Below, piece by piece: positions 26,357-28,613 of a stretch of 64,000 nt of DNA. The notes beneath the pieces were generated by a model, which searched no databases, had not been told where the DNA came from, and saw only the letters and a program-made list of their open reading frames with translations. Made by a program: the position numbers and the translations under genes. Every line of letters begins with the position of its first letter. Position 1 is the first letter of the stretch. The stretch is taken from IMG/VR virus record IMGVR_UViG_2880395615_000008, one strand, 5' to 3'. Source of the DNA: a virus (Duplodnaviria; Heunggongvirae; Uroviricota; Caudoviricetes).

Positions 26357-26545
26357 TTATCCAGCCGGTATTTCGTTATTCAGGTACAGCGATACTTTGT
26401 TTAACGGGAGACATTCACCGGAAATTTTTTGCTCGTCTCTTGCCTGATGGCAGGATTCTTTACTGGCATAAATTCCGGTAATCACATTCTGTGGCTCACC
26501 TGTTATAAGAAAAACCGTCATCATCAGTGCAAACGCTGAACTCAC
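26357..26545 (-). CDS. Small membrane protein, YdfD-like (putative lysis/toxic peptide)
   Basis: 62 aa with hydrophobic N-terminus MSSAFALMMTVFLITG; GTG start overlaps dicB stop; position as ydfD after dicB in Qin (from memory). Confidence 0.45.
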   Translation of the reverse strand: MSSAFALMMTVFLITGEPQNVITGIYASKESCHQARDEQKISGECLPLNKVSLYLNNEIPAG

Positions 26546-26730
26546 TGCTGCCCTCCGAAAATGCCAAGTTCAAGAAGGGCAATTCTGGAGAGTATGGAAT
26601 TATCATTGAGAAGATAAGGCTCATATTTTCTCATCCTGATGGCGTCTTCAGTAAACTCCCGGTTACTGAGCAGAATACCAATATTAAAACACCCTTCAGA
26701 CGTATTAACGTTTGGTAGTGACGTTTCCAT
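26542..26730 (-). CDS. dicB: Cell division inhibitor DicB homologue (62 aa)
   Basis: METSLPNVNTSEGCFNIGILLSNREFTEDAIRMRK... matches remembered DicB (..LPNVNTSEGCF.IG...SN..FTEDAI..RK..); GAGGA RBS 7 nt upstream. Confidence 0.75.
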   Translation of the reverse strand: METSLPNVNTSEGCFNIGILLSNREFTEDAIRMRKYEPYLLNDNSILSRIALLELGIFGGQQ

Positions 26731-26899
26731 TATCGCGTCCTCAACAATGAATTTTGTGATGCGGTGCCTGGTGCCTCCAGGTGACGTTAACCAGTTAACA
26801 ATTAACGCCGGATACAGAGAATCCACCCATAACACTGTTTTTGGTTTTAACTGTTCCGCGTGCGCTGAGCCGCATTCACCGCATCACAAAATTCACTTT

Positions 26900-26957
26900 A
26901 AAAAGGGCGGCAGAGCAGCCACGGAGTAAAACTGATACCGCCAAACGTCACCAGAAA
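26900..26957 (-). ncRNA. dicF: DicF small regulatory RNA homologue with intrinsic terminator
   Basis: Minus-strand sequence TTTCTGGTGACGTTTGGCGGTATCAGTTTTACTCCGTGGCTGCTCTGCCGCCCTTTTT matches remembered DicF; located upstream of dicB as in the Qin dicBF operon. Confidence 0.7.
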
Positions 26958-27293
26958 ACTGATAACAGAGGGCGTTGCAGTGGGGTTGTCACTTAAGCGT
27001 ATGGTCAACCTGACAACCCGGCGTCCTCAAGGGGGAACAGAATAACCCCGCCACACTTACCGCCGCGCCATTTCGCGGATTGCCACAACCGGAAGCGCAC
27101 GGTCGAACTAAATTTAACGACACCGTACAGAGAGACCAATTTCGCCGTGCGCTTTCGTGTTATGCCCTGACTTTTCAGGGAAAGAGCCTTTCAGTAAACT
27201 GTCAGTACCGGATTCTTATCCGTGTCCGGCGCACGACCACACGTGACAGCGTGTTGGTCTCCATTTTTAACCCAGCCCTTAATGGAGGATAAA

Positions 27294-27599
27294 ATGCACT
27301 CTAAATCAATCAATCGATATTATGTCCATGTGCAGTTATTTGAAGCAACAATGGAACAGGAGAAAAAGTTCGAGACTCTGATGCCAAATTTTAAATACTC
27401 CAGGATGATTAATGAAGGTGACATTGAATATAAATTATTGCCAGGGGCATACGTTATTCAGTCAACGCTTAATGCGAATCAAATACTTGAACAAACCTTT
27501 TCTATTGCTAATTCAGTTGGTGCTAATGCTCACATTTTTGTTTGCCCTTATGATGAAAGTGCAACCCTTTTGCCTTGTGCTGATTTTAGCACTTACTAA
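27294..27599 (+). CDS. Hypothetical protein (101 aa), low-GC, convergent to the dicA-dicF operon
   Basis: GGAGG RBS 5 nt upstream of ATG 27294; about 35% GC versus about 55% in flanks; no recognisable motif. Confidence 0.5.
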   Translation: MHSKSINRYYVHVQLFEATMEQEKKFETLMPNFKYSRMINEGDIEYKLLPGAYVIQSTLNANQILEQTFSIANSVGANAHIFVCPYDESATLLPCADFSTY

Positions 27600-27903
27600 C
27601 TAAATTTAATTTATGTTCAAGTTCGGCTATTTGCATACGTAGTGCTTTAACCATTGTTTCATGATAAATCTCACTCACTCCACCTGGGTGTGGGGTGAAT
27701 TTAGGTGAATCATCTTTGTTTTCAGAACTCAGATTCTCTTCGTACAGCTTAATAAAGGAATTACGCACATTATGGGATATATTGTCGATGGTTTCTTTTT
27801 CTACGGTACTCAGGTCAAGAGTCGCCAGTTGGGAACGAACTATATTCGCTGCCATTTCCTGGAATTGCATTGGTAAATCTTTAAATTCCATCGTCAACCT
27901 CAT
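27586..27903 (-). CDS. Hypothetical protein (105 aa) in repressor operon (ydfB/ydfC position)
   Basis: ORF start overlaps stop of upstream gene (ATGA); 3' end overlaps convergent ORF 27294..27599 by 14 nt. Confidence 0.5.
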   Translation of the reverse strand: MRLTMEFKDLPMQFQEMAANIVRSQLATLDLSTVEKETIDNISHNVRNSFIKLYEENLSSENKDDSPKFTPHPGGVSEIYHETMVKALRMQIAELEHKLNLVSKC

Positions 27904-28055
27904 CAGTCAGTGTTTCTGGCTAACCAGCGACGCGCGCCAGCTTCAGTTTTAAACGTTTTGCTTCTGGTATACGTCATCGCGGTAAACGTGCCGTCCAGGT
28001 TGGGGAATACTCCGTATACCAGAGATTCGTTGTTGCCAAGATTGAGCGTATCCAT
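27903..28055 (-). CDS. DUF1391-type small protein (YdfA/YdaF-like, 50 aa)
   Basis: MDTLNLGNNESLVYGVFPNLDGTFTAMTYTRSKTFKTEAGARRWLARNTD; GAGG RBS; ORF track offers a longer version starting at 28151. Confidence 0.55.
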   Translation of the reverse strand: MDTLNLGNNESLVYGVFPNLDGTFTAMTYTRSKTFKTEAGARRWLARNTD

Positions 28056-28223
28056 GTTGACCTCATTTGCCCTTAACGCCGGGGGGGCGGAACTAAGACC
28101 TGTCGCACCGTTGTGCTTTGATGGGATATATTGTTCTCTTAAGATGAACATATGTCAACATTGTGAATGCGCAAGAGGCAAAAAAAACCGCCTTCCGGCG
28201 GTATTGTTTTGTAAAATAAAGAA

Positions 28224-28613
28224 TTATTTTTGTCGCGTTATTGGGTCAACGTATTCTGAGTAAAATTCGGTCAGTTTTTGAAGGCGCATTTGAAAAGCTG
28301 CCAGCATATTTCTACGCTCTACAGGTGGCAGGTTTCTGTAAACATCAAGCAGGGCTTTCTCATCATCATCAAGCGCCTCTCTGTTTGTATCTTCTTTTCC
28401 TGTCAGTAGCCAGGAAAGGGAAACATTTGTCGCTTCTGCAATTTTGGCTGCGGAATCTTTACTGATTGTCCCTCTTTTTTTCCAGGCGTTGACTGATGAG
28501 CGTCCTACACCAGCGATGCGCGCTAAATCTGAACCGCTTAAATGATGCTGTTGCGAGATCGTATCTAACCTTTCTGCCAGCGGGGTGTCGTATTGCTTTT
28601 TTCTCATGTCCAT
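28224..28613 (-). CDS. dicA: Prophage repressor, DicA/RacR-like XRE-family HTH protein
   Basis: HTH LSGSDLARIAGVGRSSVNAWKKRGTISKDSAAKIAEATNVSLSWLLTGK; C-terminal ...EKALLDVYRNLPPVERRNMLAAF... like DicA; divergent from a cro-like gene. Confidence 0.75.
   Translation of the reverse strand: MDMRKKQYDTPLAERLDTISQQHHLSGSDLARIAGVGRSSVNAWKKRGTISKDSAAKIAEATNVSLSWLLTGKEDTNREALDDDEKALLDVYRNLPPVERRNMLAAFQMRLQKLTEFYSEYVDPITRQK

Follow-up and report, generated by a model that had tools for sequence, protein, structure and literature searches.

Genes and features of the locus

We examined a 64,000-nt stretch of viral DNA (the window), in which a first-pass annotation had described a DicA-type repressor, a DUF1391 gene, DicF with its terminator, a DicB homologue and a YdfD-like membrane peptide. 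Profile and covariance-model searches recovered each of these elements on the minus strand where it had been placed (Table 1). All parts of the operon, like the repressor gene, lie on this strand, and all of the ORFs are intact. The module is flanked on one side by the integrase, excisionase and exonuclease genes (22399-26264, minus strand) and on the other by ydaS and ydaT and by lambda-type tail genes, which agrees with the earlier placement of this dicBF locus in a prophage other than Qin. Fragments of ompW bound the prophage. It carries full structural genes and an IS1 element, and its gpT gene is annotated as truncated. We conclude that, very likely, a lambdoid prophage has integrated at ompW in a chromosome of the E. 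coli O157:H7 type and that the region comprises its early-left (PL-type) operon together with the immunity switch next to it. The name Sakai Sp10 was considered for this prophage but not adopted; the ompW prophage of Sakai is Sp9, whose immunity region differs.

Table 1. Coordinates of features in and around the dicBF locus.
Feature	Position	Strand	Remarks
ompW fragment	22228-22353		
Integrase	22399-23529	-	Distal part of leftward gene series
Excisionase	23507-23755	-	Distal part of leftward gene series
ExoVIII-type exonuclease	23820-26264	-	Distal part of leftward gene series
ydfD homologue (DUF1482, 62 aa)	26357-26545	-	Pfam 53.8 bits
dicB (62 aa)	26542-26730	-	In-phase internal start within 97-codon ORF, as in K-12
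Structured dicF-dicB spacer	26748-26895	-	19-bp closing helix; MFE -63.1 kcal/mol, z = -6.1
DicF sRNA (53 nt)	26905-26957	-	U-tract at 26900-26904
DicF precursor leader	26958-27235	-	~90% identical to Qin
ymfI-like gene (101 aa)	27294-27599	+	phrog_8894; convergent with operon
ORF in ydfB/ydfC slot (101 aa)	27586-27891	-	N-terminal part phrog_6937; C-terminal 34 aa YmfJ-like
ydfA homologue (DUF1391, 50 aa)	27903-28055	-	Pfam 95.3 bits; 86% identity to K-12 YdfA
PL-like promoter (dicBp equivalent)	28130-28158	-	TTGACA-17-AACAAT; overlaps putative operator TGTTCTCTTAAGATGAACA (28132-28150)
Intrinsic terminator after repressor gene	28187-28202	-	Conserved in diverged copies
CI-like immunity repressor (129 aa)	28224-28613	-	HTH domain, no peptidase S24 domain
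PRM-like repressor promoter	28620-28647	-	TTGTTA-16-TATAAT; 6 nt, then ATG 28613
PR-like promoter	28660-28688	+	TTGACT-17-AACAAT; overlaps putative operator TGTTCTCTTTAAGTGAACA (28668-28686)
ydaS, Cro-like regulator	28716-28991	+	Pfam YdaS_toxin 39 bits (cut-off 30); phrog_35
YdaT operator (PRE-type site)	28968-28985		TTGATTCATGAAAATCAA, exact; spans ydaT start codon
ydaT, CII-like activator	28975-29400	+	Pfam 37.8 bits (cut-off 21); phrog_163, CII-like

The module had been called Qin-like, a description that holds for two blocks of DNA (28094-27912 and 27235-26626) but not for the ydfB/ydfC slot, which is replaced. This slot contains two ORFs between ydfA and dicF that were missing from the first-pass annotation, one of them on the opposite strand. 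The product of this opposite-strand gene is 55% identical to e14 YmfI and scored 107 bits against the NCBIfam YmfI_phage model, under its cut-off of 140, and its convergent orientation inside the operon could interfere with PL transcripts. The second ORF had no match in Pfam, NCBIfam or PADLOC. PADLOC, Pfam and NCBIfam assigned the pair to no defence system, and the sub-cut-off YmfI match was the only one obtained.

The repressor, its promoters and putative operators

The repressor matched the Pfam families Phage_CI_repr (1.8e-12) and HTH_3, and it resembles lambdoid CI-type repressors that lack a peptidase domain in having an N-terminal HTH, no S24 domain, a divergent cro-like gene and putative PL and PR operators. 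PGAP places its start at 28607, which gives a protein of 127 aa. The earlier label of DicA-type fits this architecture of a short HTH protein without a peptidase domain, but it does not extend to orthology, as the protein is 26% identical to K-12 DicA and scored 38.8 bits against the NCBIfam DicA model (NF007257), for which the cut-off is 101. By these comparisons the repressor falls outside the DicA family, while its mode of action is predicted to be DicA-like, DNA binding included. The best match in the PDB, the CI repressor 2fjr, was weak (E 0.004), and therefore we drew no structural inference from it. In deposited phage genomes, the best match to the repressor was only 59% identical (Klebsiella phages), so none of these sequenced phages has this immunity type.

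A 19-bp palindrome, TGTTC-N9-GAACA, overlaps the near-identical promoters that precede ydfA and ydaS, and the PL element mirrors the PR element as a 31-nt inverted repeat. Exact copies of the palindrome occur only twice in the 64 kb, each on one of these promoters, which speaks for the repressor acting directly on the operon through these putative operators. Across loci with 89-92% identity, the operator half-sites and promoter hexamers are invariant and the operator centres vary, and the repressor is 98% identical in two diverged loci. The PRM-like promoter, which is also invariant in diverged copies, contains the palindrome GTTCAGTGAAC (28629-28639) and a match to the operator with two mismatches (28628-28646). 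Its spacing from the ATG suggests a leaderless repressor mRNA, for which cI and paaR2 are precedents (PMC8630535). Only one strong operator is evident per promoter, compared with three in lambda, which counts against the control proposed here.

The mirrored operator at PL also argues for repressor control of dicBF, as opposed to an arrangement in which DicF would be made from its own promoter within 27235-26957 and the repressor and dicBF would be neighbours but not one regulatory unit. Such an arrangement would suit the ~1.2 kb that the variable slot and convergent gene put between PL and dicF, as well as the presence of a terminator belonging to DicF itself. However, a consensus scan of the minus strand from 28130 to 26957 yielded no promoter-like site, and primer extension in K-12 detected no extra promoter inside the operon (PMC10448788), so we regard a separate DicF promoter as highly improbable. 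A minus-strand scan from PL to DicF found no terminator-like site.

The remainder of the switch lies rightward of the repressor. YdaS has been shown to play a Cro-like role in CP-933P (PMC8630535), and YdaT shares ~96% identity with the crystallised YdaT of CP-933P (PDB 8bt1, E 1e-88). The YdaT operator has a single exact match in the 64 kb; the motif has been footprinted in CP-933P, where it likewise lies at the junction of ydaS and ydaT (PMC9986795). The whole module had been taken as the immunity region, a reading that we revise: the switch proper consists of the repressor, the operators and ydaS/ydaT, and ydfA-dicF-dicB-ydfD is the adjacent PL-type operon, which the switch would control.

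DicF, DicB and the intervening spacer

DicF matched the Rfam family RF00039 at 26905-26956 (minus strand) with 75 bits (gathering threshold 48; E 1e-14 for the whole window), covering model positions 1-52 of 52. It is identical to K-12 DicF at 52 of 53 nt, with flanks that are 96-98% identical over 221 nt. The sole change, A39G, converts a U-A pair to U-G and leaves the predicted fold intact, and the predicted duplex with K-12 ftsZ (-29 to +25) has the same energy as that of K-12 DicF (-38.5 kcal/mol). The 3' end of DicF has the stem and U-tract of an intrinsic terminator and, because this U-tract directly follows DicF, 26900-26957 corresponds to the sRNA plus its terminator tail, as the first-pass annotation had proposed. 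Regulation and processing of dicBF have been described in K-12 (PMC10448788, PMC9438474); position ~27094 of the leader is the equivalent of the K-12 RNase III cut that gives a 190-nt species.

DicB is 58% identical to the tested K-12 protein, with a diverged C-terminal half, and scored 113.8 bits against Pfam PF05358 (cut-off 27) and, marginally, 102.2 bits against NCBIfam NF049927 (cut-off 100). YdfD is 47% identical to its K-12 counterpart and retains the N-terminal hydrophobic segment; its GTG start overlaps the dicB stop (GTGA). DicB, YdfA and YdfD all align over their full length with the K-12 proteins and exceed their family cut-offs, so that the identifications made previously are upheld for all three. 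By analogy with K-12, we infer that this DicB would inhibit division in a MinC-dependent manner.

The divergence of the DicB C-terminal half, the convergent gene within the operon, the IS1 element and truncated gpT annotation, and the defective state of many O157 prophages (PMC2669165) would each fit a silent relic, that is, an operon that is never productively expressed or whose DicB and YdfD are inactive, with no effect on the cell. We consider this very unlikely given the intact ORFs, the promoters and operators kept across diverged copies, the retention of the dicB-ydfD allele in 1,017 of 5,426 complete genomes and the near identity of DicF to the active K-12 RNA. In addition, production of DicF orthologues from O157 prophages is reported (cited in PMC6832061 and PMC10448788). 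The intactness and conservation of the dicBF locus are thus consistent with a functional operon, which is the inference that the first-pass annotation had drawn.

The spacer between dicF and dicB is stably structured and resembles the sRNA STnc100. It scored 37.4 bits against the STnc100 model (RF02076), below the gathering threshold of 47, and the structural resemblance is backed by 19 compensatory pairs. STnc100/PasD is a late-region sRNA family. The spacer is without a terminator of its own, and a structure of this type follows DicF-type sRNAs not only in this prophage but also in Qin, Rac and Sp9. The closing helix contains position 26886, to which the end of the 72-nt DicF species maps, and is a probable RNase III site. 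We tentatively suggest, as a possibility that we hold to be on the unlikely side, that the ~150-nt spacer is a conserved functional RNA of STnc100/PasD ancestry, in which RNase III cleavage of the closing helix would set the 72-nt DicF end and trim the dicB leader. If so, release of the sRNA would be coupled to translation of the inhibitor.

Related prophages and proposed regulation

The K-12 Qin locus (dicA / ydfABC-dicF-dicB-ydfDE) has the same gene order and strand logic, and it shares 90% identity with the locus described here over a stretch of 610 nt that runs from the dicF leader to the middle of dicB. The in-phase internal start of dicB and the overlap of its stop with the ydfD start are common to both. 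In contrast, the repressor is diverged from DicA and the operator is different, and a convergent ymfI/ymfJ-like pair stands in place of ydfB/ydfC. The ydaS-ydaT pair had been called Rac/Qin-like; this is correct for Rac, and the pair is also CP-933P-like, but in Qin that position is occupied by dicC. The prophage described here also differs from the cryptic Qin in having full structural genes. A homologue of the Rem antirepressor, a further difference from Qin, was not found at the hokD/DUF968 position by BLASTP or Pfam; a 55-aa ORF (34673-34840) that resembled Rem by eye was rejected, as BLASTP gave no support and Pfam gave nothing.

CP-933P/Sp12, which encodes PaaR2, YdaS and YdaT (PMC8630535, PMC9986795), has a YdaT operator of the same sequence in the same position. 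Its layout is also shared, with a leftward short repressor gene, leaderless-type spacing, PL as the mirror image of PR, and a downstream division inhibitor; the mirrored PL, the leaderless repressor mRNA and the downstream dicB/kil were established experimentally in CP-933P (PMC8630535). The two differ in that CP-933P has a paaA2-parE2 toxin-antitoxin pair after the repressor, absent here, and GTTTAGTAA-type repeats where the consensus here is TGTTC-N9-GAACA. Rac (racR-ydaS-ydaT and ydaG-ydaF-sieB-kilS-kilR) shares the ydaS/ydaT switch, a DUF1391 gene immediately after the repressor and, in the same slot, a gene on the opposite strand (sieB). It also has a diverged DicF-related sRNA, KilS (39 bits with the DicF model), followed by an STnc100-like element and a division inhibitor, but this inhibitor is KilR instead of DicB, and the repressor is different. 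Sakai Sp9 has the same ompW site and the same left arm (int-xis-exo-DUF1482-dicB), but its repressor is of DicA length, its replication genes are of the lambda type, and the only DicF-like sequence in it is diverged and, at 43.5 bits, stays below threshold.

Our analysis establishes which parts are present, in what order and how intact, and how the promoters and putative operators are laid out. By analogy with K-12 Qin and CP-933P, from which we extrapolate the binding of the repressor, its leaderless translation, RNA processing and cellular effects, we propose that in the lysogen the short CI-like repressor, which has no self-cleavage domain and whose mRNA is probably leaderless, would bind TGTTC-N9-GAACA over two near-identical promoters, PL facing ydfA-dicF-dicB-ydfD-exo-xis-int and PR facing ydaS-ydaT and the replication genes. 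YdaS would act as Cro, and YdaT as CII at the operator across the ydaT start codon. [quoted passage not shown] DicF, which in EHEC has further targets including pchA and manX, would then block ftsZ translation; DicB would direct MinC to the division site, and YdfD would promote lysis.

This copy of the dicF/dicB division-inhibitor operon is an ordinary, previously described feature. Annotated O157:H7 and O111:H8 genomes contain the 2.4-kb module at 100% identity; O157:H7 strains 611 and E32511 are examples of carriers of this prophage. Earlier publications already describe, for O157:H7 prophages, multiple dicBF operons and four orthologues of DicF. As dicBF operons are known from several prophages of pathogenic E. 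coli, the locus carries little weight as a discovery, and its use lies in annotation. RefSeq annotates the exact module sequence, but DicF itself is missing from those records, and for the immunity type of this prophage, which 81 of the 5,426 complete genomes share, specific operators and promoters are now proposed and open to testing.

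Components and ancestry of the dicBF module

The first-pass annotation had proposed that a DicF sRNA and a DicB homologue lie downstream of a DicA-type repressor. We checked both similarities and found both: the Rfam DicF covariance model gave a full-length match of 75 bits (gathering score 48; E 1e-14 over 64 kb), and the dicB product is 58% identical to K-12 DicB. All elements of this finding lie on the minus strand and read leftward (Table). YdfA and YdfD are 86% and 47% identical to their K-12 counterparts and, as in K-12, dicB occupies the C-terminal part of a longer ORF in the same phase, with its stop codon overlapping the start of ydfD.

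Table. Features of the dicBF module and its flanks, with sub-threshold STnc100 matches
Feature	Coordinates	Strand	Remark
HTH repressor gene, 129 aa	28224-28613	-	Pfam Phage_CI_repr + HTH_3; no peptidase domain
Intrinsic terminator	28187-28202	-	between repressor gene and PL-like site
Promoter-like site (PL)	28158-28130	-	in front of ydfA
ydfA-facing element			TTGACA-17-AACAAT; palindrome TGTTCTCTTAAGATGAACA
ydaS-facing element			TTGACT-17-AACAAT; palindrome TGTTCTCTTTAAGTGAACA
DUF1391/ydfA gene	27903-28055	-
Chimeric 101-aa ORF	27586-27891	-	YmfJ-like C-terminus; ydfB/ydfC slot
ymfI-like 101-aa ORF	27294-27599	+	convergent with chimeric ORF
DicF	26905-26957	-	Rfam DicF model
dicB, 62 codons	26542-26730	-
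DUF1482/ydfD gene	26357-26545	-
ExoVIII-type exonuclease gene, xis, int, then ompW fragment			leftward beyond ydfD
STnc100-like match, window	26748-26895	-	dicF-dicB spacer
STnc100-like match, comparison locus L002	6433-6642
STnc100-like match, comparison locus L003 (Rac)	7223-7409
STnc100-like match, comparison locus L006	1899-2108
STnc100-like match, comparison locus L008	12028-12233

DicF differs from its K-12 counterpart by a single change, A39G, within surroundings that are 96-98% identical across 221 nt. The substitution converts a U-A pair to U-G within the Rfam consensus stem and gives a fold energy of -15.4 kcal/mol, against -15.9 for K-12 DicF. Pairing with the ftsZ initiation region is predicted at -38.5 kcal/mol for both versions, because base 39 falls in an interior loop there. 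DNA common to Qin, the K-12 cryptic prophage carrying the reference dicBF operon, is confined to two blocks, 28094-27912 (86%) and 27235-26626 (90%), the second of which stops mid-dicB. The C-terminal half of DicB and the entire YdfD are a different allele from that of Qin, 90% identical to the strain MBT-5 copy and found in 1,017 of 5,426 complete E. coli genomes.

In K-12, dicBp is repressed by DicA, the 53-nt DicF arises by termination and RNase E cleavage, RNase III is responsible for the 5' terminus of a 190-nt precursor and for the 3' terminus of a 72-nt species, and no internal promoter was found in the operon (PMC10448788, PMC9438474). The predicted equivalent processing positions here (190-nt 5' end at ~27094; 72-nt 3' end at 26886) all fall within the Qin-like block, and we found no terminator-like site from PL to DicF. 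Judging from the K-12 and EHEC literature, DicF would act on ftsZ, manX and pchA, DicB would act together with MinC, and YdfD would promote lysis.

Repressor, switch and predicted operators

Identity between the repressor and K-12 DicA is only 26%, and its NCBIfam DicA score of 38.8 bits lies below the cut-off of 101. It is therefore not a DicA orthologue, and the earlier description as DicA-type holds only for its presumed working. Since the repressor has no peptidase domain, direct RecA-dependent induction of the prophage is not expected, in line with O157 Sakai prophages whose repressors likewise lack this domain and which excise spontaneously without mitomycin C induction (PMC2669165). A search here for a homologue of Rem, the Qin antirepressor, found none.

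Divergent from the repressor gene are ydaS and ydaT, the product of the latter being ~96% identical to the crystallised YdaT (PDB 8bt1) of the O157:H7 prophage CP-933P. The published operator of CP-933P YdaT, TTGATT-N6-AATCAA, has one exact match in the window (28968-28985), which spans the ydaT start codon as it does in CP-933P (PMC9986795). In addition, a 31-nt inverted repeat places one promoter-plus-palindrome element at two spots, before ydfA and before ydaS. No further exact copies of TGTTC-N9-GAACA occur in the 64 kb, for which simple arithmetic gives a chance expectation of ~0.06 matches. In two diverged loci (DNA 89-92% identical, repressor 98% identical), no change affects the operator half-sites, the promoter hexamers or a third palindrome, GTTCAGTGAAC (28629-28639), and the 9-nt operator centres differ, the pattern that would be expected of real operators.

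The predicted promoter of the repressor itself, TTGTTA-16-TATAAT, ends 6 nt ahead of the ATG at 28613, a spacing that fits a leaderless mRNA of the kind shown for lambda cI and CP-933P PaaR2 (PMC8630535). One diverged copy carries one synonymous change in codon 2, consistent with translation from this first ATG. Through the predicted operators, this comparative analysis supports the proposal that the immunity repressor directly controls ydfA-dicF-dicB-ydfD as a PL-type operon, a logic for which CP-933P is the experimentally characterised precedent (PMC8630535). The immunity region was present in 81 of 5,426 genomes, one copy each, and was not found among deposited phage genomes.

The dicF-dicB spacer and the variable ydfB/ydfC slot

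The dicF-dicB spacer is predicted to form a very stable multi-branch fold (z = -6.1) with a 19-bp closing helix at the place where the RNase III cut giving 72-nt DicF is expected. It matches the Rfam sRNA family STnc100 below threshold, as do spacers directly after the DicF-type sRNA in Qin, MBT-5, Rac and Sp9, a Sakai prophage (28-39 bits across the five; gathering score 47). A consensus fold of spacers and true STnc100 copies contains 45 pairs, 19 with compensatory changes, from only seven sequences of about three lineages. A 2026 preprint on STnc100/PasD mentions neither DicF nor dicB.

KilS, an annotated sRNA of K-12 Rac (L003 7411-7466, minus strand), overlaps a sub-threshold DicF match of 39.1 bits, and Rac DNA aligns to window 26943-26746 at 78% identity; this sRNA in front of kilR thus seems to be a divergent DicF relative.

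A variable cassette occupies the ydfB/ydfC slot. Its ymfI-like gene here is 55% identical to e14 YmfI; MBT-5 has the same switch but another gene pair, Rac has sieB and Sp9 another plus-strand ORF. Cargo in these three often includes one opposite-strand gene, and the slot appears to be a hot spot for lysogen-expressed accessory genes.

Genomic setting and precedent

It is already published that in many pathogenic E. coli the dicBF operon is present several times, in different prophages, and that O157:H7 produces four DicF orthologues (PMC6832061, PMC10448788); a switch of the ydaS/ydaT type followed by dicB or kil has been described as well (PMC8630535). The dicBF finding thus holds but is not new, and the mosaic seen here and the proposed operators are annotation details. 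Ten complete genomes, from O157:H7, O111:H8 and untyped strains, match the 2.4-kb module at 100% identity; their records annotate dicB, DUF1391 and DUF1482 but not DicF. ORF coordinates at ~34673-35184 differ by 1 nt from those of strain 611 (NZ_CP038428.1), so outside the module the window is not base-for-base identical to that record.

Two ompW 3' fragments bound the prophage, whose tail genes are of lambda type (U, G/T, tape measure, L, K, I, J, Lom, tail fibre) and which has a ClpP-protease/capsid fusion as head gene. Ahead of this prophage, in tandem at ompW, the first third of the window (1-22350) is the right end of another one, which is Sp9-like. It carries the T3SS effector genes nleA, nleH1-2, nleF, nleG and espM1, along with several IS elements and a gpJ with a frameshift. 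Sakai Sp9 shares the ompW site and left arm, but its repressor is of DicA length, its replication genes are lambda-type, and its only DicF-like sequence is a diverged one.

Other RNA genes lie elsewhere in the window. The late region holds a full STnc100 copy (39153-39353, plus strand; 148 bits) that has its own terminator; it is placed between a DNA methylase gene and a DUF6645 gene, a position that in Sp9 additionally holds tRNA genes and AgvB. A hok/sok type I toxin-antitoxin locus (34070-34394, plus strand; sok 111.7 bits, hokD) occupies the early-right region, as in Qin. Two identical 300-nt copies 12,254 nt apart each contain a full minus-strand isrC match (150 bits), one (399-698) antisense within a tail-assembly (gpI-like) gene of the upstream prophage and the other (12653-12952) adjoining nleF amid IS remnants.
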